Shown piece by piece: positions 1,245 to 40,327 of a stretch of DNA of 64,000 bases (position 1 is the first letter of the stretch; every line of letters begins with the position of its first letter). The stretch is taken from the sequence record OM632671.1. One strand, given 5' to 3'. The stretch is from Escherichia phage BEU50. The position numbers and the translations under genes are program-made. Below the pieces are notes generated by a model. The model saw nothing but the letters and a program-made list of their open reading frames with translations. It was not told the origin of the DNA and did no database searches.

Positions 1245-3065
1245 ATGATTAAAAATGAAATTAAGGTATTGTCAGATGTAGAACATATTAAGAAACGTAG
1301 TGGTATGTATATTGGTTCTTCTGCTAAAGAAGCACATGAGCGTTTTTTGTTTGGTAAATATCAACAAGTTGAATATGTTCCTGGTCTGGTTAAATTAATC
1401 GATGAGATTATTGACAACTCGGTTGATGAAGCTATTCGTACATCATTTAAGTTTGCAAATAAAATTGATGTGCAAATTAAAAATAATCAAGTTTCGGTGG
1501 AAGATAACGGACGTGGTATTCCTCAAGGTTTAGTTACCGACCAAACGGGTGAACAAATTCCTGGGCCTGTAGCAGCCTGGACTATTCCAAAGGCTGGTGG
1601 TAACTTTGGTGATGACTCTGAACGCAAGACTGGTGGTATGAACGGTGTAGGGAGTAGTTTAACTAATATCTTCTCTACGTTGTTTACAGGCATCACGTCA
1701 GATGGCGAAAATGAAATCACTGTTAACTGTTCAAACGGAATGGAAAACAAATCATGGTCTTCTAAGAAATCTAAAGGTAAAGGCACTAAAGTAATCTTCA
1801 CTCCTGATTTCTCTTCATTTGAAGAGCATAATTTATCTCAAATTTATTTAGATATTACTTTAGACAGACTTCAAACATTGGCAGTCGTTTATCCTGATAT
1901 CAAGTTCACATTTAATGGTAAAAAGGTTGATGGTAATTTTAAACGATTTGCTAAACAATTTGGTGAAGATAACATCATTCAAGAAAATGATAAAGTCTCT
2001 ATAGCATTCACAACATCACCAGATGGCTTCCGTCATTTAACTTATGTGAATAACATCCATACTAAAAATGGTGGCCATCATGTTGAATGTGTAATGGATG
2101 ATATCTGTGAACATCTTTTGCCGGGTATTAAAAAGAAATATAAGGGTATTGAAGTCACTAAAGCTCGTGTTAAAGAATGCCTCACAATGTTGATGTTTAT
2201 TAGAGACATGAGCAACATGCGTTTTGATTCTCAGACTAAAGAACGTTTAACGTCAACGTATGGTGATATTCGTAATCATATCCAATTAGATGCTAAGAAA
2301 ATTGCTCAGGCACTTCTTAAAAACGAAGCCTTGATTATGCCTATTGTTGAAGCAGCATTAGCTCGTAAATTGGCAGCAGAAAAGGCTGCAGAAACTAAAG
2401 CAGCTAAAAAGGCGACTAAAGCTAAGGTTCATAAGCATATTAAAGCTAACCAATGTGGTAAAGATGCAGATACGACATTGTTTTTAACAGAAGGTGATTC
2501 GGCAATTGGTTATCTCATTGATGTTCGTGACCGTGAACTACACGGCGGATTCCCATTACGTGGTAAGGTGATGAATAGCTGGGGTATGTCATATGCTGAT
2601 ATGATGAAGAACAAAGAGCTCTTTGATATCTGTGCTATCACAGGTCTTATTCTTGGTGAAAAGGCAGAGAATACGAACTATCGTAATATTGCAATTATGA
2701 CCGATGCCGATCATGACGGTCTTGGAAGTATCTATCCAGCTTTGCTTGCTTTCTTTAGTAATTGGCCTGAATTGTTTGAACAAGGACGTATTCGCTTTGT
2801 TAAAACGCCTGTAATTATTGCACAAATTGGCAAAACTCAAAAATGGTTTTATACTGTAGCTGAGTATGAAGAAGCTAAAGATACACTGCCTAAGCATAGT
2901 ATTCGATACATCAAGGGATTGGGCTCACTTCAGCGAGATGAATATAAAGAAATGATTCAAAACCCTGTGTACGACGTAGTTAAACTTCCTGAAAATTGGA
3001 AAGAACTATTTGAAATGCTCATGGGTAACGACCCTGAACTCCGTAAAGATTGGATGCTAGGATAA
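1245..3065 (+). CDS. 39: DNA topoisomerase II large subunit, ATPase (uninterrupted 606-aa form)
   Basis: GHKL ATPase motifs DEIIDNSVDEA and EDNGRGIP; T-even gp39 family; 606 aa, i.e. not split into 39 and 60. Confidence 0.9.
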   Translation: MIKNEIKVLSDVEHIKKRSGMYIGSSAKEAHERFLFGKYQQVEYVPGLVKLIDEIIDNSVDEAIRTSFKFANKIDVQIKNNQVSVEDNGRGIPQGLVTDQTGEQIPGPVAAWTIPKAGGNFGDDSERKTGGMNGVGSSLTNIFSTLFTGITSDGENEITVNCSNGMENKSWSSKKSKGKGTKVIFTPDFSSFEEHNLSQIYLDITLDRLQTLAVVYPDIKFTFNGKKVDGNFKRFAKQFGEDNIIQENDKVSIAFTTSPDGFRHLTYVNNIHTKNGGHHVECVMDDICEHLLPGIKKKYKGIEVTKARVKECLTMLMFIRDMSNMRFDSQTKERLTSTYGDIRNHIQLDAKKIAQALLKNEALIMPIVEAALARKLAAEKAAETKAAKKATKAKVHKHIKANQCGKDADTTLFLTEGDSAIGYLIDVRDRELHGGFPLRGKVMNSWGMSYADMMKNKELFDICAITGLILGEKAENTNYRNIAIMTDADHDGLGSIYPALLAFFSNWPELFEQGRIRFVKTPVIIAQIGKTQKWFYTVAEYEEAKDTLPKHSIRYIKGLGSLQRDEYKEMIQNPVYDVVKLPENWKELFEMLMGNDPELRKDWMLG

Positions 3066-3862
3066 TGAATTATCGTAAAATTTATGATAAACTTATCGCT
3101 GCGGCTAAAAACCGCAGCATTATTCCTAATTATACTGAGACACATCATATATTGCCAAAATCTATGGGTGGGAGTAATGATAAATCAAATCTAGTTAAAA
3201 TGACCCCTAGAGAGCATTTTATCGCCCATTTATTGCTTTATAAAATTCATAAGAACCGTTCTATGCTTATGGCTATTAGAGCTTTTTACATGGGAGCTAG
3301 AAATTCTAGAGATTATGATTGGCTTAAACAAGAATTCTCTAAAGAGCACTCTAGATTTATGAAAGAATGGATTGCTAAAAACGGCAACCCATTTAAAGGT
3401 AAAAAACATACTAAAGCAACAAGAGAATTAATGTCACATATTGCTTCACAACGTATAGGCGAATTAAATCCATTTTATGGTAAAACTCATACGCAAGAAG
3501 CAATAGATAAAATAATACAGGCCAACAAGTTATCTTGGGAGAATGGGCGAAAAGCACCTGTAAAAACAAAAGAACACCAGGATAAAATAACTAAATCAAG
3601 AATGGAAACATTTAAAACAAAAGGATTTAAACCATACACTCCTAGGTCGGAAGAAACTAAAGCTAAGACTAGAGAGTTGTATAAATCTAAATATGAAAGA
3701 AGGCCTATAAGAATCACAAGTGTAAAAACAGGTGAAACTATTGATTTTAACTATCTTTATGAATTAAGAGAGTATTTAGATATAGGGTCTTCTAATATAT
3801 TGAAAGCATTAAATAATCCTAACAGAACCTGCAAAGGTTATAAAATGTGTTGGATGTCCTAA
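3065..3862 (+). CDS. HNH homing endonuclease (mob-type, free-standing)
   Basis: HNH motif HHILPKSMGGSNDKSNLV; repeated GK-HT helix motifs; ATG at 3065 overlaps gp39 stop; ORF-track start 3050 is TTG. Confidence 0.8.
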   Translation: MNYRKIYDKLIAAAKNRSIIPNYTETHHILPKSMGGSNDKSNLVKMTPREHFIAHLLLYKIHKNRSMLMAIRAFYMGARNSRDYDWLKQEFSKEHSRFMKEWIAKNGNPFKGKKHTKATRELMSHIASQRIGELNPFYGKTHTQEAIDKIIQANKLSWENGRKAPVKTKEHQDKITKSRMETFKTKGFKPYTPRSEETKAKTRELYKSKYERRPIRITSVKTGETIDFNYLYELREYLDIGSSNILKALNNPNRTCKGYKMCWMS

Positions 3863-3890
3863 GCTCCTTCGGGAGCTTCATTTTAATTTT
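3862..3890 (+). terminator. rho-independent terminator candidate
   Basis: AGCTCC-TTCG-GGAGCT hairpin followed by T-rich tract. Confidence 0.55.
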
Positions 3891-3904
3891 AATAAGGCTT
3901 AATT

Positions 3905-5005
3905 ATGAAAGTTATGTTTATCCCATCTCGTGCAGTCCCATTTAATCCTGACCGTGTACAAGGTGGTCTTGAAGCGGTTCATTTGAACGTGTTGAAATAT
4001 TTAGTTTCTATCGGTGCCGATATTGATTATATCGGCTTTGATAATGACACGTTTGGTGACTGGAAAGTTACACACCATCCTGTTGGTCATCTGACTAAAT
4101 TCAGTCTAGGTATGAGTTATACTATGGCTCGTAAGATTGTTGAACTAGCCGGCATCCATGAATACGATTTTGTTGTTACTATGGAACCGACTAAACTAAC
4201 CGTTCAGGCAATTAAAGACGCAGGTCTCTCTAAAGTTCATAAGAATTTTATGGCAACACCATTTGAACCAGTATCTCGTGGCATTGTTCAAATTTGGGAC
4301 CAGACTATTCAAATTCATAAGAATGGCGGTAAGAGTTATGCTCCTACTAAAGCCTTCCGTGAATTTGAACGCAAATATTGTTATATGACTTCAGGTCTGA
4401 CTGACAAAATCGATTATGATTATTGGCGAGCAAATCCGTTGTTTGAAGCCGAAGATTATCCGGTTATTTGTTTGACTGAAAAGCCAGAAGTTCTCCCGGC
4501 AACTGATTTGATTATTAGTGCTCAACGTTATGACACTAAGATGCGTCGCACTGATGTTGCTCTTGAAGCAATTAAAGCACTAGGCGAAAATGGTGTAGGA
4601 TACTGTCCTAGTAAATGGGCACCACCAGCTAAATATCCTGTTATTATTGATGCTCCACACAGTGAAATCATGGAACGTCTTAAAACAGCTAAAGCACTTA
4701 TTAATACGTGTCCTGACACAGGTACGGTAGAGAATAGTTCTATTGAAGCCATCTCTAAAGGTGTCCCTGTAATCCAGTTAGTTTTTAAGGATTATCCTCA
4801 TGCGACATTTGAATACGACCCAGATACTGTGCGTGTAGAAATTGATTCCTCTACTCCTAAGAAAGAAGTAGTTGCGCTTTACACAAAAGCTGTATTAGAA
4901 TTCACTGACACATACGAAGCTCGAGTTAAACGTGCTGAAGCAGTATGGAAGAAGTATAATCGAGATGCAGTTGTTGCGATGTGGGATAAAATCTTCACAG
5001 CGTAA
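3905..5005 (+). CDS. hypothetical protein, possible GT-B-fold glycosyltransferase (366 aa)
   Basis: ORF is solid; function weak: N-terminal MKVMFIPSR...GGLE and C-terminal ENSSIEAISKGVPVI resemble GT4-type motifs. Confidence 0.6.
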   Translation: MKVMFIPSRAVPFNPDRVQGGLEAVHLNVLKYLVSIGADIDYIGFDNDTFGDWKVTHHPVGHLTKFSLGMSYTMARKIVELAGIHEYDFVVTMEPTKLTVQAIKDAGLSKVHKNFMATPFEPVSRGIVQIWDQTIQIHKNGGKSYAPTKAFREFERKYCYMTSGLTDKIDYDYWRANPLFEAEDYPVICLTEKPEVLPATDLIISAQRYDTKMRRTDVALEAIKALGENGVGYCPSKWAPPAKYPVIIDAPHSEIMERLKTAKALINTCPDTGTVENSSIEAISKGVPVIQLVFKDYPHATFEYDPDTVRVEIDSSTPKKEVVALYTKAVLEFTDTYEARVKRAEAVWKKYNRDAVVAMWDKIFTA

Positions 5006-5097
5006 ATCCTGAATAGCCTGAGGCACTATTACACATAAGATGATAGATTATATGGTCTTTAGTAATAGTGCCCTAGGAATCTACTGAAGAGAATATT

Positions 5098-31195: not shown

Positions 31196-32329
<1,134 letters not shown>

Positions 32330-32391
32330 TGGTTTACAAACACCAAGGAAGGTGTTACTATGGCTTTTATCAACAACACGAGGAGAAAATT

Positions 32392-32892
32392 ATGAATATG
32401 CAATTGATTACTAACGATATGGTCGTAACCGCTTTTGGAGACACAACTGACGGAATCCGGGTCTTTAAGAAAGGACGTCCAGTTGGTTATCTTACTGACC
32501 TACGTGTTACACTGGCCAAAAATCTTAAAAAGAAAGTAAAACAAAAAGAGTATTCAACCCGATACGCTGAAGAGAAACGCGAAGCGATGCCAGAAGCAGT
32601 TAATGCTATGGTAGAATTTCTTCAAAACAATTTGACTAAATATGACGCTAATGTGTTCATTAATATTAGTCAACCAAACGTACATATCGCAGGTATCAAA
32701 TTCTATATTATTTGCGACCCTCTTACCGACAAATTCAACCGTCTCGGAATCTCAAGCCCATATCATACAGCAGAAGAGTTGTGTGTATTGTTTGAATCAT
32801 ACAAAATCCAAACTGACGGGCCTAAAACAGTTCTTATCAATGGATTATCCCGAGACGAAATCATTGAGATTATTCAAACATGCTTAAAGTAA
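32392..32892 (+). CDS. alc: hypothetical protein, possibly Alc (host transcription inhibitor)
   Basis: 166 aa from ATG 32392 behind GAGGAGAAAA SD; assignment by position and size only. Confidence 0.45.
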   Translation: MNMQLITNDMVVTAFGDTTDGIRVFKKGRPVGYLTDLRVTLAKNLKKKVKQKEYSTRYAEEKREAMPEAVNAMVEFLQNNLTKYDANVFINISQPNVHIAGIKFYIICDPLTDKFNRLGISSPYHTAEELCVLFESYKIQTDGPKTVLINGLSRDEIIEIIQTCLK

Positions 32893-33236
32893 ATGCATCA
32901 TATATTGTAGTGGCAGCTTTTGCAGTTGTTGCTACTGTAACAATAGCATTTCTGAACCATAAAGTCGATTCGCTGAATACTGAATTGGCTTCTGTTAAAG
33001 AGACTGCTAAAAACAATGCTAAAGTATTAGACGACTTCAAGATTCAATATCAGTCAATCGAAGAAATGACTTATAAGAACCGTGTTTTAGTTGACCAACT
33101 TAAGGCTGAAAATGAAAAGCTCCGTAAGGATTCGAAGAAGAAGAACGTGGTGGCAAGTAAGCCAGGATTGGTCGAAAAACAAATCAACAGGTCCTTCGAT
33201 TCCTTTGCAGAAGACCTCAGGAAGCTCTCAGAATGA
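32880..33236 (+). CDS. hypothetical membrane-anchored coiled-coil protein (118 aa)
   Basis: Hydrophobic N-terminus then charged helical region. Confidence 0.5.
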   Translation: MLKVNASYIVVAAFAVVATVTIAFLNHKVDSLNTELASVKETAKNNAKVLDDFKIQYQSIEEMTYKNRVLVDQLKAENEKLRKDSKKKNVVASKPGLVEKQINRSFDSFAEDLRKLSE

Positions 33237-33523
33237 TTAAATTAACCGCAGTTGTATTATCTATTGGTCTCCTAGTTGGATGTACTCAGGATGTGCCAGT
33301 AAGCCCTAAAGAAACTTTACATCCTTCATGGCCTACGCCTATTTCCGAATACAACCAGAAATGGCAAGTAAAGGTTATTGATGGTAATCCGTGGGTTGGA
33401 ATGCCATTTGAAGACTCTCAAGAATTTCGTATCTGGTTAAACGACGTAAAAAGATATATACATGACCAGAAGACTATGTTATGTTATTATCGTAGTGGTT
33501 TAAAAGAGGAAAAATGCCAATGA
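33233..33523 (+). CDS. putative lipoprotein (96 aa)
   Basis: Lipobox-like LLVGC after hydrophobic signal. Confidence 0.55.
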   Translation: MIKLTAVVLSIGLLVGCTQDVPVSPKETLHPSWPTPISEYNQKWQVKVIDGNPWVGMPFEDSQEFRIWLNDVKRYIHDQKTMLCYYRSGLKEEKCQ

Positions 33524-33738
33524 CTAAAGAACAGCATGAATACATTAAAGGGCTTATCTATGAATCTGAAATGGCGGCTATGATTTATGGACGCCAGATT
33601 CAACGATTAGAATCTTTGCCTCCGACTAATGACCGCTTGTTAGTTCAGTCTCGTGCTAATCTGAAAAATGAATATCAGAATAAGTGGGCAGTAGCGACTA
33701 AAGCTCTTCATGAGTATATTGAATCTTTAGTAAAATAG
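33514..33738 (+). CDS. hypothetical protein (74 aa)
   Basis: ORF track. Confidence 0.5.
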   Translation: MPMTKEQHEYIKGLIYESEMAAMIYGRQIQRLESLPPTNDRLLVQSRANLKNEYQNKWAVATKALHEYIESLVK

Positions 33739-33768
33739 TTTACAAACTCTCGGGAGCAGAGTATAATG
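33738..33768 (+). promoter_or_regulatory. T4-type early promoter candidate
   Basis: GTTTAC then TATAAT at 33763-33768. Confidence 0.4.
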
Positions 33769-33795
33769 CTCCTATGGATAATTGAGGAAATCTAA

Positions 33796-34094
33796 ATGAA
33801 AACATTACTAGAGAATTACATCAAACGGTCTGATGAGTATATTGATATCTGCCGTGGAATGACACTTGTAGATTATGACAAAGATGCTGCAAAGGCACTA
33901 GATGAAGCAGGTAAAGCTCTTCGTAAAGCGGCTAAAGAAAAAGGGTTGGATTTGCAACAACTCAAAAGTCATATGATTAAATTTATTTCTTCAAACGTTA
34001 GAAGTACATCAATTAATAAAAACGTTGCTGAAATTAATAAAGACCGGCGCGAGCATAACATTCGTATTCTTGAAACTTTCTTAGGAATAAAATA

Positions 34095-34095
<1 letters not shown>
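33796..34095 (+). CDS. hypothetical protein (99 aa)
   Basis: ORF track. Confidence 0.5.
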
Positions 34096-35181
<1,086 letters not shown>

Positions 35182-35182
<1 letters not shown>

Positions 35183-35373
35183 TGAAACGATTATATGAAG
35201 TGATTGAGGCCATCGAACAACGTAAAGAATATTTGTTTGTAGCCTGGTCTTTAGTAAATGGACAGTTCGGTATTGATGTGCTGGACTATGAGCATGAAGA
35301 ACGTTTGGACGGCGGTATATTTGATAGCGTCGACCAGGCAATTGAATGGTTAAATGAAAACTATGTACGATAA
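35182..35373 (+). CDS. hypothetical protein (63 aa)
   Basis: ORF track. Confidence 0.45.
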
Positions 35374-35578
35374 ACATCATGAAATCGAAGATGAAGCATA
35401 CAAAATGCTTCGTAAACTAGTGGGTCTTAATATGAGTCCTACATTAATCAACAAACTCGCAGGAATTCGTAATGATCTGAATACTCGTTACAAAGGTGAA
35501 TATCATGTAGAGTTTGTTCCTGTAGGTGAACCAACCGAGCGATTTGTTGTTCGAGTTAAAGTAAATACTGTGCACTGA
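35354..35578 (+). CDS. hypothetical protein (74 aa)
   Basis: ORF track. Confidence 0.45.
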   Translation: MKTMYDKHHEIEDEAYKMLRKLVGLNMSPTLINKLAGIRNDLNTRYKGEYHVEFVPVGEPTERFVVRVKVNTVH

Positions 35579-35585
35579 GGTAATT

Positions 35586-35861
35586 ATGTTCCCAACTTAT
35601 TCTGAAATTGTAAAGGTAGTCTTCAGTCAGATTATTGCTAATAATATGTTTGAAGTGCTTGATAATGCAGCCGAACTCAGAGTTCATGCTCAAGTAACTC
35701 ATGTACTCAATGCTTTGCTCCCAGACCAAGTAGATTCTATTGCTATTACTCTTCTCCCTGGGTCTGCACACGTCATCGTGGTATTTGATCTTGACGGCGA
35801 TTTAGTTATCCAATGTGATATCAATTTCGGTACACAAAAAATTGAATGCAAAGCAATTTAA
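35586..35861 (+). CDS. hypothetical protein (91 aa)
   Basis: ORF track. Confidence 0.45.
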   Translation: MFPTYSEIVKVVFSQIIANNMFEVLDNAAELRVHAQVTHVLNALLPDQVDSIAITLLPGSAHVIVVFDLDGDLVIQCDINFGTQKIECKAI

Positions 35862-35863
35862 TG

Positions 35864-35893
35864 GTTTACAACATGGTAGAGTTGTGATACTAT
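35864..35893 (+). promoter_or_regulatory. T4-type early promoter candidate
   Basis: GTTTAC, 18-nt spacer, TACTAT; conserved leader ending GAGGAAAACAGAATG. Confidence 0.4.
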
Positions 35894-35922
35894 AACTCTA
35901 CCAACACAATGAGGAAAACAGA

Positions 35923-36159
35923 ATGCTAAGTGAAAACCCAATTACAGTACACGAATTTCAGATTAAAGTAAAAGAATTTGCTCAAGCACTCATCAATAAA
36001 GTGTCTGAACGTTTCCAGGATGCAACATTACGAGTTATTCAAGAATCTCCACGTTCTTTTCTCATAATCGTTAATCCTAAAGATGGTGACCAGATTACTA
36101 GCCTTAAATTAGGCAGTGATGGTCTTGTTGAAGCAACTCGAGTATATGGAACACTATAA
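35923..36159 (+). CDS. hypothetical protein (78 aa)
   Basis: ORF track. Confidence 0.45.
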   Translation: MLSENPITVHEFQIKVKEFAQALINKVSERFQDATLRVIQESPRSFLIIVNPKDGDQITSLKLGSDGLVEATRVYGTL

Positions 36160-36279
36160 TGAGAGCTATCTCATTACTATCGAGAATGGTCATAAATCTG
36201 AGCACTACCAACTTAGCCTGTCTAATCCGGTTAAAGGTATTGTTGAATCAGAATCTGTTTATATCTCCTAAGGATTGTT

Positions 36280-37272
36280 ATGTTACCTGTCGTCGGAAAA
36301 CTTATTTCTCCAAAAGAACTGGCTGAGATTATTCCTTTGTCGGAAGCTTACGCATCACAAGTGGCTTCTCATCGCGAACAAGTTAATTCGATTATGAACG
36401 GTGAAGACCCACGCAAACTTATTGTTGTAGGTCCTTGTTCAATTCATGACCCTATTGCTGCTGTTGAATACGGCAAACGTTTGGCTGAACTTCAAACTCG
36501 TCTTCCTAATGTTCTGTTAGTGATGCGCGTTTATTTTGAAAAGCCTCGAACTACCGTAGGTTGGAAAGGTCTTGTAAATGATCCATATCTTGACGGAAGT
36601 TTTGATATGAACCACGGTCTTATAGTTGCACGAACATTGTGTCGTAAACTTCTACGTATGGGACTTCCATTAGCAACTGAAGTATTAGACCCATTCACGA
36701 TTAAGTATCTTTCTGGTATTTTCTCATGGGTTGCTATTGGCGCCCGTACGACTGAAAGTCAGACACATCGTGAAATTGCTTCAGGTCTACCGATGTGCGT
36801 AGGCTTCAAGAACGCAACCAATGGTTCTATTAAAGTAGCTACAGACGCGATGTATAGTGCCGCCTGGCCTCATCGGTATATGGGTATGGACGTCGATGGT
36901 ACTGTAGGCATTGTTGAAGCTGAAGGTAATCAGAATACGCATATCGTATTGCGTGGCGGGACCAACGGCCCGAACTATCATTCTTCTGATATTCAAGAAG
37001 CTTCTAACAAAGCAAGTGCAGTAGGTCTGAATCATTATGTAATGGTTGACTGTAGCCATGCAAACGCTGCTGGGCATTATAGCAATCAAATTGGTATTGG
37101 TAAAAATTTAGCAGCTAATGATTTGGTCAAAGGAATTATGATAGAATCATTCCTACATGAAGGAAATCAAAAAATTTCTGATAATATGTCCTATGGCGTT
37201 TCCATTACCGATGCGTGCATCAGTTGGGAACAAACTAAAGAGCTGTTAACTTATATTAATAAGGTTCAATAA
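36280..37272 (+). CDS. 3-deoxy-D-arabino-heptulosonate 7-phosphate (DAHP) synthase, class I (AroG/AroF/AroH-like)
   Basis: Hallmark motifs VVGPCSIHD, EKPRTTVGWKG, GARTTESQ, DCSHAN, ESFLHEGNQ, SITDACI; about half of residues appear shared with E. coli AroG. Confidence 0.85.
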   Translation: MLPVVGKLISPKELAEIIPLSEAYASQVASHREQVNSIMNGEDPRKLIVVGPCSIHDPIAAVEYGKRLAELQTRLPNVLLVMRVYFEKPRTTVGWKGLVNDPYLDGSFDMNHGLIVARTLCRKLLRMGLPLATEVLDPFTIKYLSGIFSWVAIGARTTESQTHREIASGLPMCVGFKNATNGSIKVATDAMYSAAWPHRYMGMDVDGTVGIVEAEGNQNTHIVLRGGTNGPNYHSSDIQEASNKASAVGLNHYVMVDCSHANAAGHYSNQIGIGKNLAANDLVKGIMIESFLHEGNQKISDNMSYGVSITDACISWEQTKELLTYINKVQ

Positions 37273-37853
37273 TGAAAGCTAGCACATATCTTCAGATTGC
37301 TTATCTGATTTCTCAAGAATCAAAATGTTGTTCATGGAAAGTTGGCGCCGTCATTGAAAAAGATGGGCGCATTATTTCTACTGGGTATAACGGTAGCCCG
37401 GCCGGTGGTGTTAACTGTTGTGAACATGCATCCGAAAACGGTTGGTTGAAGAATAAACCAAGCCCGGTCATCGTTGCTGGGCATAAAGAAGGCACTACAG
37501 CATTTGGACGGGTGGATAATTTTGTTTTGGCTAAAGAACATCGGGCCGCTCATAGTGCATGGTCTGCTAATAACGAAATCCATGCGGAATTGAATGCAAT
37601 TTTGTTTGCAGCTCGTAAAGGTAATTCTATTGAAGGTGCTACGTTGTATACGACACTTTCTCCATGTCCTGATTGCACTAAAGCTATTACGCAGTCAGGT
37701 ATTAAAAAGGTTGTATACGCTGAGTTATATGACAGATCTCCTGAAAATTGGGCAGACATTCTAAAACAAGCCGGTATTGAAGTAATTCAGTACTCTCGTA
37801 ATAATCTTCGTTCTCTGAATTGGGAACAAATTCGAAACTTTTGTGGTGAATAA
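37272..37853 (+). CDS. cd: dCMP deaminase
   Basis: 193 aa; zinc-binding HAELNA and SPCPDC motifs; T4 Cd family. Confidence 0.9.
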   Translation: MKASTYLQIAYLISQESKCCSWKVGAVIEKDGRIISTGYNGSPAGGVNCCEHASENGWLKNKPSPVIVAGHKEGTTAFGRVDNFVLAKEHRAAHSAWSANNEIHAELNAILFAARKGNSIEGATLYTTLSPCPDCTKAITQSGIKKVVYAELYDRSPENWADILKQAGIEVIQYSRNNLRSLNWEQIRNFCGE

Positions 37854-37854
37854 T

Positions 37855-38151
37855 ATGATTTTAACTGAACAAGAAACTATGGTTCTTCGTGAACGTATTA
37901 AAACTATTCTGTCTGTAGGCGTTCATTGTGTTGTGTTTGAAAAGGCTAACGGTGATGTTCGTACGATGTTTGCTTCTCGTGATGAACTTGAAGTCAAATA
38001 TGAAAATAGTAACCCATCAACAGAAGTTCGTTCTGAACCTCGTGAATCAGTTCGAGCATTCGATACCGAGTTAGGTCAGTGGCGTTCTTTCCGCCTTGAT
38101 AAAGTAATTTCGGTTGATGGTACTCCGGTAGAACGTTTGCTTCTTATGTAA
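37855..38151 (+). CDS. hypothetical protein (98 aa)
   Basis: ORF-track frame 37843..38151 (GTG) trimmed to ATG overlapping cd stop. Confidence 0.45.
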   Translation: MILTEQETMVLRERIKTILSVGVHCVVFEKANGDVRTMFASRDELEVKYENSNPSTEVRSEPRESVRAFDTELGQWRSFRLDKVISVDGTPVERLLLM

Positions 38152-38152
38152 T

Positions 38153-38178
38153 ATGCTTTACGAATAGTATGGTATTAT
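38153..38178 (+). promoter_or_regulatory. MotA-type middle promoter candidate (gene 31)
   Basis: ATGCTTTA MotA box, 12-nt spacer, TATTAT -10. Confidence 0.45.
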
Positions 38179-38208
38179 TAATCTATCGTTAAACAACAAG
38201 GAAATAAG

Positions 38209-38541
38209 ATGTCTGAAGTACAACTCCCAATTCGTGCCGTTGGTGAATATGTCATTCTGGTTTCTGAACCCGCTCAAGCAGGTGATGAAGAAGTTACCGA
38301 ATCAGGACTTGTGATTGGTAAACGTGTTCAAGGTGAAGTTCCTGAACTATGTGTAGTTCATTCTGTAGGTCCTGATGTTCCTAAAGGTTTTGTTGAAGTC
38401 GGTGATTTGACTCCACTACCAGTTGGACAAATTCGAAATGTTCCACATCCATTTGTGGCTTTGGGACTTAAACAACCTAAAGAAATTAAACAGAAATTCG
38501 TAACATGCCACTATAAAGCTATTCCGTGTCTTTATAAGTGA
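38209..38541 (+). CDS. 31: co-chaperonin for GroEL (GroES-like) gp31
   Basis: 110 aa; matches T4 gp31 size and context. Confidence 0.85.
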
Positions 38542-38665
38542 TATAAATAACTATATGAAGAGAACACTCTTCTAAGCGGTAGCCTACAACTGAGAGACTT
38601 GTCGAAAGAAGGTGAAATTCAGACGAACGTGGCTACTAAATATTATCTCGAATTGAGAATTTAAA

Positions 38666-38914
38666 ATGATTAAACAATTACAACACGCTCTTGAACTGCA
38701 ACGAAACGCATGGAATAACGGTCACGAAAACTACGGCGCGTCGATTGATGTTGAAGCCGAAGCACTGGAAATCCTGCGTTATTTCAAACATCTGAACCCG
38801 GTACAGGCAGCTTTGGCCTCTGAACTGGAAGCAAAAGATGAACTGAAATATGCTAAGCCTTTGGCTTCTGCGGCTCGTAAAGCAGTACGTCATTTTGTTA
38901 TTACCCTTAAATAA
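38666..38914 (+). CDS. rIII: hypothetical protein, possibly RIII lysis-inhibition accessory protein (82 aa)
   Basis: 82 aa, position next to gene 31 as in T4. Confidence 0.5.
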   Translation: MIKQLQHALELQRNAWNNGHENYGASIDVEAEALEILRYFKHLNPVQAALASELEAKDELKYAKPLASAARKAVRHFVITLK

Positions 38915-39208
38915 GTTTTAGGTGATTCGCTACCTTAGTGCGGCTAGAAAATCGAGGAGCCGTCGAACTGTCTGATTAATGATTTGCGAATCATTATAGT
39001 TTTAAGACCCCGGCAGTTTTACGGTGTACCTCTTGAATGTATTTTGTACTATCACGCGTCAGAAAAAGGTTATCTGTCTAAGTCGTGGTTGGTATGATGA
39101 CGGGTTTATGGTTATCCTGTCGTTAAATATCCAAAACCTATGTTCCCTTCGAGGGCTTGCGCAGGCAATGTCAATAAGTCCTGCATTTTCATTTAAAGAG
39201 AATTTATA

Positions 39209-39388
39209 ATGGCAAAACAAGCTAAAGCAAAGAAAGCAGTTGAAAAGAAAGTTGATGGTACCTCTAAACGCGCTGGATACAAGCGTGGGTCGAACTCTCG
39301 TATTAATCAAACAGTTGAGAAGATCATGCGCAGAGCACGTGCAGTTCTTCGAGATGATGCTTCTCGTTTTGGAAAGGTTATTGCATAA
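39209..39388 (+). CDS. small basic protein (59 aa)
   Basis: Not in ORF track; MAKQAKAKKAVEKK... Lys/Arg-rich; followed by terminator. Confidence 0.35.
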   Translation: MAKQAKAKKAVEKKVDGTSKRAGYKRGSNSRINQTVEKIMRRARAVLRDDASRFGKVIA

Positions 39389-39393
39389 TTTTA

Positions 39394-39418
39394 GGGAGAC
39401 TTCGGTCTCCCTTTTGTG
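39394..39418 (+). terminator. rho-independent terminator candidate
   Basis: GGGAGAC-TTCG-GTCTCCC hairpin then TTTTGTG. Confidence 0.6.
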
Positions 39419-39447
39419 CGTTTAGGGCAGAAAAAGTTTAAAAAGAT

Positions 39448-39476
39448 GTTTACTCTCCTGTAGGATGTGTTACTAT
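39448..39476 (+). promoter_or_regulatory. T4-type early promoter candidate
   Basis: GTTTAC, 17-nt spacer, TACTAT. Confidence 0.45.
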
Positions 39477-39518
39477 AGACTTGTACCATCTAATCAATAA
39501 AACAACCTGGAGAACAAA

Positions 39519-39887
39519 ATGAAAATCAATCTGAACTCATACATCAAATGTAAAGACCACGATGGTTATAAAGCTATCGAAATTAAAGAATTCCAGTGGA
39601 TGTTATACAAAGAGCAATTTGAGTTCGTAGGTTGTATGACCCCTGAAGGTCCTTCTGATGATTTCTCTTGGAAAATTGTGTTAGCAAACTTTTTCACAGG
39701 TGACACATACGAATTAAAAACTATTATTACCGGTAAAATTCGTTCAGAAACATATGTTGACGAAGAAACTGGTTACTCTGAAGATGTTACATGGTATCAA
39801 AATGGACGCATTACAGCAGATAACCTGATAGAAAAAATGAAAGCCAAAGGTGTTTTAAATTTAGACAATTGGATTAAAGTTGCATAA
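39519..39887 (+). CDS. hypothetical protein (122 aa)
   Basis: ORF track; SD GGAGAA. Confidence 0.5.
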   Translation: MKINLNSYIKCKDHDGYKAIEIKEFQWMLYKEQFEFVGCMTPEGPSDDFSWKIVLANFFTGDTYELKTIITGKIRSETYVDEETGYSEDVTWYQNGRITADNLIEKMKAKGVLNLDNWIKVA

Positions 39888-39892
39888 AACAG

Positions 39893-39920
39893 TTTACTTT
39901 GGTACAGGTTATGTTATTAT
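39893..39920 (+). promoter_or_regulatory. T4-type early promoter candidate
   Basis: GTTTAC, 16-nt spacer, TATTAT; leader near-identical to the 39448 cassette. Confidence 0.45.
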
Positions 39921-39961
39921 AGACCTGTACCAACAAACAACTTAAACATCTGGAGAATAAA

Positions 39962-40327
39962 ATGAACTACATCAACTTCGAACGTAAATATGTTTCTAAC
40001 GGTATCGCTGGTTCTTCTGAAGTTATTTGCTTATGGAAACACGAAAACGGTACAGTTTGTGAAATCGAACAGTGCATGACTCCTAATTACGTTTATATGC
40101 GATTTGAAAACGGTATCACGGTTTCAATCACGATGGAAGGTTCAAATTTTAAAATTGCATTAGATGATGATTTCCGTCAGCGTGATTTAGGTACTCATCC
40201 TTGCTGGAATGGTGTTAATCGTAAACTTCTGGTTAAAACTTGGATTCGTCATATCCTGAGTAACCGAGCTAAACCTGAACATCTCGAAGCAATCTTTGAT
40301 GTAGTTCTTAACGAATTTGATATCTAA
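39962..40327 (+). CDS. hypothetical protein (121 aa)
   Basis: ORF track. Confidence 0.5.
   Translation: MNYINFERKYVSNGIAGSSEVICLWKHENGTVCEIEQCMTPNYVYMRFENGITVSITMEGSNFKIALDDDFRQRDLGTHPCWNGVNRKLLVKTWIRHILSNRAKPEHLEAIFDVVLNEFDI

Follow-up and report, generated by a model that had tools for sequence, protein, structure and literature searches.

A DAHP synthase of T-even phages with a conserved catalytic site and a predicted change in its inhibitor site

Escherichia phage BEU50 carries a gene whose 330-residue product is assigned here, from its sequence, to the type I-alpha DAHP synthases (EC 2.5.1.54 family), with a catalytic apparatus predicted to be complete. Its inhibitor site appears to be remodelled, as it is throughout a clade of T-even phages, while the active site is kept. 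In aromatic biosynthesis, DAHP synthase is the gate that controls flux and is subject to feedback inhibition. We consider it probable, although far from certain, that the phage gene provides an early-expressed enzyme insensitive to aromatic amino acids, which would keep the entry to the shikimate pathway open after host shut-off.

The existence of the gene in phages is not news. It is an already known accessory gene: over 200 phage records annotate it, by homology only. About 140 Mosigvirus records have annotated copies that are 98-99.7% identical, and in other T-even genera the identity is 58-78%. The gene labelled ‘phospho-2-dehydro-3-deoxyheptonate aldolase’ in GenBank for JS09, moskry, O157 typing phages, F48, X20, PM2 and PEi20/26 is the same one, and the gene described here is a member of PHROG 5045 (AMG category); the position ahead of cd is likewise shared. 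Published mention of phage DAHP synthase treats it as an AMG whose function is unknown; for functional studies of any phage DAHP synthase, the searched literature yielded annotation-level mentions only. What this analysis adds to prior knowledge is only the regulatory-site signature, which was not found described in the searched literature.

The gene and its neighbours

In the window, which is the whole stretch of 64,000 nucleotides of sequence record OM632671.1 that was analysed, the gene occupies positions 36280..37272 on the + strand. It starts with an ATG, preceded at a distance of 5 nt by a Shine-Dalgarno motif, AAGGA (36270..36274, +), as can be read directly from the sequence. A preliminary description, made from the DNA letters, had reported a 330-residue open reading frame with the hallmark class I DAHP synthase motifs, and this proved exact in its coordinates as well as in the hallmark residues, all of which were found. 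Since an in-frame TGA lies at 36244-36246 and no ATG, GTG or TTG occurs ahead of the start, the N-terminus of the protein cannot extend further.

The location between pseT and dCMP deaminase was also correctly described. PseT polynucleotide kinase (34283..35182) lies before the gene, with four small open reading frames between them, and cd, the dCMP deaminase gene (37272..37853, +), follows it. The ATG of cd overlaps the DAHP synthase stop codon in the sequence TAATG (37270..37274, +), and the two genes are probably translationally coupled and co-transcribed. A sigma-70-like site, TTTACA-17-TACTAT with an upstream TG (35865..35893, +), lies between the cd.3-like and cd.2-like reading frames, at a position matching that at which the early promoter Pe133295 is annotated in T4. 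This site is a candidate promoter for cd.2, the DAHP synthase gene and cd, weak on its own, as shuffled controls contain just as many sigma-70-like sites as this region does. There is no dedicated promoter directly 5' of the DAHP synthase gene, and the part of the unit upstream of it contains no + strand terminator-like site and no late-promoter TATAAATA. No Rfam family matched in 32000-40000.

Family, fold and catalytic residues

An HMM search, the check suggested in the preliminary description, places the protein among the class I DAHP synthases. The NCBIfam model TIGR00034 (aroFGH) is matched with 427.1 bits against a cut-off of 173.2 (residues 6-327 on model positions 9-335 of 342), PRK12755 with 455 bits against a cut-off of 343, and the Pfam family DAHP_synth_1 (PF00793) with E = 6e-75. 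Residues 1-330 cover positions 8-337 of the 341 in the PHROG 5045 profile (8.2e-182), and residues 8-327 match the structure of Escherichia coli AroF (6agm) at 2e-104. Over the full length, the protein is 51% identical to AroF, 47% to AroG and 44% to AroH. The scores with the isoenzyme models stay below the respective cut-offs (364.3 bits against 568 for the AroG model NF006723, and 385.7 against 463 for the AroH model NF009396), which makes GenBank names like ‘aroF, Tyr-sensitive’ too specific.

The AF2 model has a pLDDT of 91.7 and superimposes on type I-alpha DAH7PS structures (4hso, 8e0u and 1n8f) with TM 0.94-0.96 and an rmsd of ~1.6 A. It contains the (beta/alpha)8 barrel and both type I-alpha additions: an N-terminal extension, shorter here by 8-9 residues, and the beta6a/beta6b hairpin, with strands at residues 198-203 and 209-214. 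The phage enzyme is like E. coli AroF (6agm/6agl), AroG and AroH in its type I-alpha family, in its metal, PEP and E4P residues, and in its barrel and beta-hairpin.

All hallmark residues are kept. In AroG numbering, the metal ligands are C61, H268, E302 and D326, and the residues that bind PEP and E4P are R92, K97-P98-R99-T100, G163-A164-R165, K186 and R234. The catalytic residues in the numbering of the window protein are C53, R83, K88, R90, R156, K177, R225, H260, E289 and D311; of these, C53, H260, E289 and D311 correspond to the metal ligands Cys61, His268, Glu302 and Asp326 of AroG, which are invariant in the alignments. Conservation is 100% for C61, R92, K97, R99, H268, E302 and D326 across 29 phage-clade and 98 cellular sequences, and G163-A164-R165, K186 and R234 are invariant in an alignment of phage and E. 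coli sequences. The loss of a metal-binding or catalytic residue on careful alignment had been named in the preliminary description as an observation that would count against the assignment; none is lost.

Distribution and selection

The window comes from a Mosigvirus-like T-even coliphage, with DNA 98.5% identical to Mosigvirus genomes. Mosigvirus, Kanagawavirus, Marfavirus, Winklervirus and Bragavirus all have a DAHP synthase gene in the slot beside cd; in T4 it holds the unrelated 112-aa cd.1, and in RB69 it is empty. The earlier remark that the gene is not part of the classical T4 set is borne out by these two phages. A link to the arabinosyl-hmC DNA modification of Mosigvirus was considered and rejected, since RB69, in which that modification has reportedly been described (title of PMC6024577), is without the gene.

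The phage sequences (29, from at least six genera) form a monophyletic clade, and in a neighbour-joining tree with midpoint rooting all 98 cellular sequences are sister to it. The best cellular identity to the phage protein is 53%, compared with 51% for AroF. GC3 is 29% in the phage gene versus 50-57% in E. coli aroFGH. The gene is under purifying selection, with dN/dS of 0.14-0.20 between genera; within Mosigvirus, the roughly 3 synonymous and 7 non-synonymous changes are too few for an estimate of selection.

The inhibitor site

The 29 phage-clade and 98 cellular sequences were compared for fixed differences, defined as positions with at least 90% conservation within each group. The only positions fixed differently in the phage clade are Q151K, D155G, S180P, F209Y and T223A (AroG numbering), and P150I occurs in 28 of the 29 phage sequences. 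In the window protein, these six positions, taken in order from 150 to 223, are I141, K142, G146, P171, Y200 and A214. Relative to E. coli AroF, AroG and AroH, the inhibitor contacts are replaced at all six positions. Q151 and S180 are essentially invariant among the cellular homologues, yet no clade member retains either. The chance that at least four of the five fixed sites would fall among the 14 known inhibitor-site positions is ~1e-5. The canonical inhibitor site (Q151, S180, P150, D155, F209 and the N-terminal D/E/N-D/N pair) is absent in the phage clade, whereas cellular proteins are ~100% canonical. Because the site is a regulatory and not a catalytic feature, its non-canonical form does not exclude membership in the enzyme family.

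Published work describes this site. A review (PMC9529685) reports that the side chains of Q151/Q152 and S180/S181 bind the main chain of Phe or Tyr and that D155 makes a stabilising salt bridge; it gives feedback resistance as complete for P150L and D146N and also lists S180F, L175D, L179A, F209A/S and V221A as resistant. The Phe site is built from the N-terminal extension and the beta-hairpin (PMC4735112).

Engineered or selected feedback-resistant forms of AroG and AroF (P150L, S180F, D146N, L175D, F209A, Q151 variants and N-terminal-domain engineering) share with the phage enzyme changes at positions 150, 151, 180 and 209 and at the N-terminus, where laboratory changes abolish inhibition by Phe or Tyr (PMC9529685; Zhang et al. 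2014, cited by title). Unlike those variants, the phage changes are natural, multiple and fixed across the clade, they introduce other residues (Ile, Lys, Pro and Tyr), and their effect is predicted.

The preliminary description also considered a deregulated enzyme plausible, arguing that the N-terminus was about 20 residues shorter than that of AroG. That argument fails, as 20 residues is the difference in total length. At the N-terminus, the phage protein has 8 residues fewer than AroG (phage P11 aligns with AroG P19), and compared with AroF it has 9 fewer. Internal deletions of 1, 5 and 3 residues and a shorter C-terminus, minus an insertion of 1 residue, make up the rest of the difference. 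These 8-9 residues and the three small deletions also set the phage protein apart from E. coli AroF and AroG. Deregulation itself stays plausible on other grounds, namely the replaced inhibitor-contact positions (P150I, Q151K, D155G, S180P and F209Y). The N-terminal shortening does remove the acidic/amide pair found at D6-D7 in AroG, which has no counterpart in any of the 29 clade members. Ahead of the residue equivalent to AroG P19, the 29 phage proteins have 8-12 residues, versus 16-53 in the 98 cellular ones.

The signature appears, from the sequences searched, to be confined to the T-even phage clade. The DNA encoding DPFTIKYL was sought as an exact motif in the genomes of 185,579 bacterial species; the 19 matches (about 26 would be expected by chance) include none in a DAHP synthase gene. 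Loss of the canonical site as a general trait of virus-borne DAHP synthases was considered and rejected, since 74 of 80 viral copies in IMG/VR, mostly from giant-virus MAGs, have the canonical residues. The sole other non-canonical case is the distant copy in Aeromonas phage HJ05.

A precedent for a naturally amino-acid-insensitive enzyme exists in the PhzC-type (type IIB) DAH7PS PA1901 of Pseudomonas aeruginosa, which is without functional allosteric sites for aromatic amino acids and serves a dedicated demand outside feedback (PMC6435475). It differs from the phage protein in being type II rather than type I-alpha, in omitting structural elements and having an altered oligomer where the phage enzyme has point replacements, and in belonging to a bacterial secondary-metabolite cluster instead of a phage genome.

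Proposed role and alternatives

The reading that we prefer can be set out as follows. Transcription of the gene, shared with cd.2 and cd, would precede replication, and its own Shine-Dalgarno sequence would serve for translation. The enzyme would condense PEP and E4P regardless of the Phe, Tyr and Trp pool: the residues predicted to hold the inhibitor backbone are gone (Q151 to Lys, S180 to Pro), an Ile stands where P150L abolishes inhibition, the D155 salt-bridge residue is missing, and so are the first 8-9 N-terminal residues, with which the partner subunit helps to form the site. Once host transcription is shut off, de-repression of host aroF, aroG and aroH would be impossible, and the phage enzyme would then sustain carbon flow into the shikimate pathway. 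Pre-existing host enzymes would carry out the later steps, and aromatic amino acids and chorismate-derived compounds would be sustained for the burst.

The data show the identity of the protein, its fold and intact catalytic residues, the clade-specific signature, purifying selection, synteny and the accessory distribution. That the enzyme is active and blind to its inhibitors, when it is expressed, and what the phage gains from it are what we infer. The aromatic amino acid or chorismate supply proposed in the preliminary description would be one such benefit. Output of aromatic amino acids need not rise, because the phage supplies only the first step and the terminal branches (PheA, TyrA and TrpE) stay feedback-controlled. 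T4 and RB69 thrive without the gene, and therefore any benefit would be conditional. If the reading is true, a virulent phage overrides host metabolic feedback by a single gene for an inhibitor-blind enzyme, and a natural, evolution-tested feedback-resistant type I-alpha enzyme becomes available for metabolic engineering. The effect on fitness is directly testable, because close relatives differ naturally: RB69 is without the gene, and JS09-like phages have it.

It is rather unlikely, although more credible than the other alternatives, that the enzyme is active and unregulated but serves a different end, either chorismate-derived cofactors (pABA and folate for dTMP and hydroxymethyl-dCMP) or a drain on E4P and PEP that re-routes central carbon. 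T-even phages depend on the folate-dependent enzymes of td, frd and gene 42. The DAHP synthase gene lies within, and is probably translationally coupled to, a nucleotide-metabolism unit beside dCMP deaminase, in a position conserved across genera, and because the terminal aromatic branches stay under feedback control, extra chorismate may spill into other branches. Adjacency is, however, a weak guide to function in T-even early regions, which are mosaics of small unrelated reading frames, and T4 and RB69 make hm-dC DNA without a DAHP synthase gene.

The conservation of the replacement residues raises another question. Were the site simply abandoned, such high conservation would not be expected; the residues may instead serve a new effector or the structure. 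The pocket might have been re-tuned to another effector, such as a pathway intermediate or a metabolite of the infected cell, so that the enzyme is regulated by a new signal; we regard this as unlikely. I150, K151, G155, P171 (window numbering), Y209 and A223 hardly vary between genera with only 56-78% identity, and entropy over AroG 150-189 is lower in phages (0.11-0.15) than in cellular proteins (0.31-0.48), which argues for selection on a new state rather than decay. The region also borders active-site strands, however, which offers an alternative reason for its conservation, and the changes to Pro and Gly suggest a collapsed or locked pocket over a new binding site. The broader proposal that the I-K-G-P-Y-A replacements either lock the enzyme in an active state or form a new pocket for regulation, so that shikimate entry is coupled to a signal or demand specific to infection (such as folate derived from chorismate for hm-dC or dTMP synthesis), is similarly doubtful. 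If true, it would be a natural case in which a virus has altered the allosteric control of an enzyme at the entry to a host pathway.

Somewhat less likely again is an ordinary feedback-sensitive enzyme, with which the phage merely adds enzyme dose, the inhibitor-site changes being neutral or compatible with inhibition. The closest solved relative is the Tyr-sensitive AroF, and the residue at AroG-211 is Gly, as in Tyr-type enzymes. The beta-hairpin, most of the N-terminal strand, D146, L179 and V221 are retained, and Lys can hydrogen-bond a carboxylate; a ligand with such a group might still be bound by the Lys at 151. Against this, the Q151 and S180 that every clade member has replaced are also nearly invariant in the 74 other viral copies; substitutions at P150, Q151, S180 and F209 confer feedback resistance experimentally (PMC9529685); and the counterpart of AroG D6-D7 is gone.

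Mis-assignment of another PEP-aldolase of the superfamily, for example one that is KDO8P-synthase-like or acts on another sugar phosphate, is very improbable: PF00793 spans both DAHP and KDO8P synthases and one phage paper loosely ties the domain to LPS synthesis, but NCBIfam matches are to DAHP synthase models only (no KdsA at E<=1e-3) with the aroFGH equivalog far over its cut-off, neither the KPRT motif of the DAHP synthase type nor the Cys-His-Glu-Asp metal site shows any variation, and identity to AroF, AroG and AroH is 44-51% over the full length.

A cd.2 relic and a direct repeat around the gene

The resident cd.2 (35923..36159) is of the RB69/T4 type, and directly 3' of it the 120-nt spacer holds a 41-aa reading frame (36146..36271, +), the remnant of another cd.2, of the Kanagawavirus/Marfavirus type, of which it represents the 3' half. 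Kinship of this reading frame with T4 cd.1 was considered and rejected, as there is no similarity. The segment absent in RB69 is flanked by an imperfect direct repeat, with the left copy ATAATGAGAGCTA at 36156..36168 (+) and the right copy ATAATGAAAGCTA at 37269..37281 (+), identical at 12 of 13 positions and 1113 bp apart. RB69 has a single copy of the repeat, at its cd.2/cd junction.

The DAHP synthase gene and its relatives

The DAHP synthase (DAHPS) gene of BEU50 is an ORF of 330 aa at 36280..37272 (+), with an ATG start and a TAA stop; the ORF listing recovered the same coordinates and length as the preliminary description. A Shine-Dalgarno motif, AAGGA, lies 5 nt before the ATG (36270-36274, +). 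Because an in-frame TGA stands upstream at 36244-36246 and no further start codon falls between the two, the short N-terminus of the protein is real and not a mis-call. Profile searches bear out the earlier assignment to the DAHP synthase family: the protein matches Pfam DAHP_synth_1 (6e-75), NCBIfam TIGR00034 aroFGH (427 bits; cut-off 173), PRK12755 (455 bits; cut-off 343) and PHROG 5045, ‘phospho-2-dehydro-3-deoxyheptonate aldolase’ (8e-182). It scores under the cut-offs of both the AroG- and the AroH-specific NCBIfam models, and the GenBank label ‘aroF, Tyr-sensitive’ on phage DAHPS is over-specific. An antisense ORF of 100 aa (36787-37089, -) and an antisense sigma-70-like site (TTTACC-17-TATAAT with TG, 10/12; 37104-37076, -) within the gene are probably chance matches in AT-rich coding sequence.

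Many Mosigvirus genomes (a20, moskry, O157 typing phages 3/6/13, JS09 and others) share 97.6-98.5% identity with the 4.26 kb between pseT and gene 31; coverage of this stretch reaches at least 80% in 139 records. A tblastn search with the protein found 212 phage records, 139 of them at least 95% identical. Identity is 77-78% in Kanagawavirus (Enterobacter Entb_45, Edwardsiella PEi26), 67-68% in Marfavirus F48 and other Klebsiella phages, 67-69% in Winklervirus X20 and Erwinia Virsaitis27, and 58-59% in Bragavirus PM2 and other Proteus phages, with a few distant or unrelated contigs besides. The majority of the matching phage records already carry a DAHP synthase annotation. The gene is real, but it is known already at annotation level, since annotated phage genes match it at 99.7% identity, a PHROG already contains it and papers discuss it: the phiC120 genome paper mentions a DAHPS domain, and a Klebsiella-phage paper hypothesises aromatic amino acid supply. 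We found no biochemical or genetic study of phage DAHPS in the searched literature, to which the remodelled inhibitor site of the whole clade, described below, seems new.

Catalytic site, fold and selection

The protein was aligned with E. coli AroG, AroF and AroH (MG1655) and four phage orthologues, and a second alignment held 127 sequences. The metal ligands C61, H268, E302 and D326 (AroG numbering throughout) and the PEP/E4P residues R92, K97-P98-R99-T100, G163-A164-R165, K186 and R234 are invariant in the alignments. The hallmark class I motifs noticed at first reading thus survive careful alignment, with every metal and catalytic residue kept. The closest solved structure is the Tyr-sensitive AroF 6agm (2e-104, phage residues 8-327 against 17-344). 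An AlphaFold2 model built with 49 sequences (pLDDT 91.7, pTM 0.91) shows a complete (beta/alpha)8 barrel together with the beta-hairpin of the type I-alpha enzymes, and fits DAH7PS structures from N. meningitidis and E. coli at TM 0.94-0.96 and an rmsd of about 1.6 A. From residues and model together, the phage enzyme is very probably active.

Among phage genera dN/dS of the gene is 0.14-0.20, and its GC3 of 29% is phage-like, against 50-57% in E. coli aroFGH. On these figures we take the gene to be old and maintained, neither a recent pick-up from a host nor a decaying remnant. Differences within Mosigvirus (window, SQ17 and JS09) are mostly non-synonymous, about 7 against 3 synonymous (dN/dS 0.6-0.7), a number too small for interpretation; at the N-terminus, residues 5-6 differ among these phages, VG vs IR.

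A remodelled inhibitor site

A search of 5.8 billion proteins reveals a sharp identity gap: the phage clade is 56-99% identical to the query and 319-343 aa long, whereas no cellular homologue exceeds 55% identity, and their lengths run from 341 to 385 aa. In an NJ tree the 29 sequences of the phage clade form one monophyletic group. Signature positions were defined as at least 90% conserved both in the phage clade and in the cellular group, with differing residues. The whole protein has only five, Q151K, D155G, S180P, F209Y and T223A (cellular residue first); P150I is present in 28/29 phage-clade sequences. In cellular enzymes, side chains of Q151/Q152 and S180/S181 hold the main chain of bound Phe/Tyr and a D155 salt bridge stabilises the site; AroG P150L and D146N are completely Phe-resistant, S180F, L175D, L179A, F209A/S and V221A are feedback-resistant, and Gln151 variants have an effect on inhibition (PMC9529685). 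The beta-hairpin holds T223, which is two residues away from V221. The chance of at least four of the five signature positions falling among the 14 known inhibitor-site positions (of 329) is about 1e-5.

DNA encoding DPFTIKYL turns up 19 times in 185,579 bacterial species genomes, never in a DAHPS gene, where about 26 occurrences are expected by chance. Among 80 DAHPS-encoding IMG/VR contigs, I-K-G-P-Y-A occurs only in those of T-even size, and the other 74, mostly giant-virus MAGs, have canonical or nearly canonical inhibitor-site residues. Across these collections the signature is specific to the T-even phage clade. The replacement residues are nearly invariant, and entropy over AroG 150-189 is 0.11-0.15 in the phage clade vs 0.31-0.48 in cellular enzymes, which indicates that the new state is under selection and counts against simple loss of function. 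This state may be either a conformation locked in the active form or a pocket of new specificity.

The preliminary description had argued for deregulation from an N-terminus about 20 residues shorter than that of AroG. The whole protein is 20 residues shorter, but alignment assigns only 8 to the N-terminus (phage P11 = AroG P19), and 9 relative to AroF; internal deletions of 1, 5 and 3 residues and C-terminal shortening, less a 1-residue insertion, make up the remainder. The argument therefore falls, while a deregulated enzyme stays plausible, and the remodelled site turns that idea into a sharp, cheap experiment. Phage sequences have 8-12 residues ahead of AroG-P19 vs 16-53 in cellular ones. 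The absent stretch holds an acidic/amide pair aligned with AroG D6-D7, residues that presumably contact bound Phe in the AroG-Phe structure; hydrophobic residues of the strand that match I10 and I13 are retained. Engineering of the N-terminal domain has reportedly yielded feedback-resistant enzymes (Zhang et al. 2014).

Separately, the unrelated 79-kb Aeromonas phage HJ05 encodes a distant DAHPS (3899-5062) of 387 aa, with about 37% identity and a long N-terminus. Its catalytic residues are intact and its inhibitor site is non-canonical (Q151H, D155P, S180P, F209V), making it perhaps a second case, independent of the first, of a phage DAHPS whose regulatory site has changed. Fusions of a type I-alpha DAHPS to a C-terminal prephenate dehydratase domain (PF00793 + PF00800), AT-rich and 590-680 aa in length, occur on about 14 IMG/VR contigs, mostly giant-virus MAGs, and keep canonical inhibitor-site residues (L098, i.e. 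IMGVR_UViG_3300025449_000058, 3001-4002 and downstream; L086, L088, L092-L095, L099, L100, L102, L107, L109, L111).

Expression and proposed role

The DAHPS stop overlaps the ATG of cd in TAATG (37270-37274, +). No promoter-like site was found directly upstream of the DAHPS gene; the nearest, TTTACA-17-TACTAT with TG (35865-35893, +), separates cd.3 from cd.2, where T4 is annotated with the early promoter Pe133295. Sigma-70-like sites in the region are no commoner than in shuffled sequence. From about 29.2 kb to 38.5 kb the + strand has no terminator-like site, and late-promoter TATAAATA is absent as well. A MotA-box-like middle-promoter motif, TGCTTTAC...TATTAT (38154-38178, +), stands just upstream of gene 31 (38209), and TATAAATA (38542-38549, +) just downstream of it, ahead of an rIII-like ORF (38666). 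The stop-start overlap and this pattern of promoters, late promoters and terminators suggest prereplicative co-expression of DAHPS with nucleotide-metabolism genes. TGCTT-N12-15-TANNNT is enriched across the whole window (34 matches vs 17 expected; 0/100 shuffles reach 34).

T-even phages shut off host transcription, and RB69 and T4 carry alc a few kb upstream of the cd locus. Two controls act on host DAHPS, feedback inhibition and repression by TyrR/TrpR. In the mechanism we propose, phage DAHPS would be expressed early in infection, would catalyse without inhibition by Phe/Tyr/Trp, and would keep up carbon entry into the shikimate pathway once de-repression of host aroF/G/H is impossible. 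Insensitivity to the three amino acids is probable from the altered site; early expression with sustained carbon entry has an even chance of being right; and on balance we lean towards the whole chain, an active, aromatic-insensitive, early DAHPS that holds the shikimate entry open.

An unregulated DAHPS favoured for its supply of chorismate-derived cofactors, or as an E4P/PEP drain, and not for amino acids, is compatible with the same enzymology; this purpose seems rather unlikely. Re-tuning of the pocket to another effector, which near-invariant replacement residues would also fit, is improbable. An ordinary DAHPS that retains its inhibitor sensitivity is a still poorer candidate. With every catalytic residue kept, a different aldolase specificity is scarcely credible. 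The aromatic-insensitive enzyme is the reading we prefer.

Genomic context and cassette history

As first described, the gene lies between pseT, the gene of a polynucleotide kinase/phosphatase identified by profile search (34283..35182), and the dCMP deaminase gene cd (37272..37853), which follows it directly; four small ORFs intervene on the pseT side (cd.4-like, RB69 ORF227-like, cd.3-like DUF7355 and cd.2-like DUF7320). Downstream of cd come a 31.1-like WYL_2/SH3 protein and the gp31 co-chaperonin. The DAHPS gene is directly upstream of cd in Mosigvirus, Kanagawavirus, Marfavirus, Winklervirus and Bragavirus. In T4 (L014 3119-4262) the slot holds an unrelated hypothetical cd.1 of 112 aa and no DAHPS gene, confirming that the gene lies outside the classical T4 set, and in RB69, the type species of Mosigvirus (L009 11743-12503), the gene is missing and cd.2 abuts cd; very close relatives are thus polymorphic for its presence.

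Relative to RB69 the window has 1113 bp extra, flanked by a direct repeat identical at 12/13 positions, ATAATGA(G/A)AGCTA (left copy ATAATGAGAGCTA, 36156-36168; right copy ATAATGAAAGCTA, 37269-37281), of which RB69 has one copy. The cassette was either inserted here through microhomology or deleted in the RB69 line. Directly after the resident RB69/T4-type cd.2, in the 120-nt spacer, a 41-aa ORF (36146-36271) matches the C-terminal half of cd.2 of the Kanagawavirus/Marfavirus type and gives no alignment with the resident cd.2, so the cassette bears a donor-type cd.2 scar. We read this scar from the alignments as evidence of cassette exchange between T-even genera. The relic is annotated as a gene in JS09 (JS09_0231) and is unannotated in moskry. 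Neighbouring genes carry mistaken names in several GenBank records: pseT is called ‘zeta toxin’ or ‘AAA family ATPase’, cd of relatives is called ‘ribD riboflavin biosynthesis protein’ or ‘tRNA-specific adenosine deaminase’, and their 31.1-like WYL_2/SH3 protein (37843-38151 here) is called ‘tail fiber protein’.
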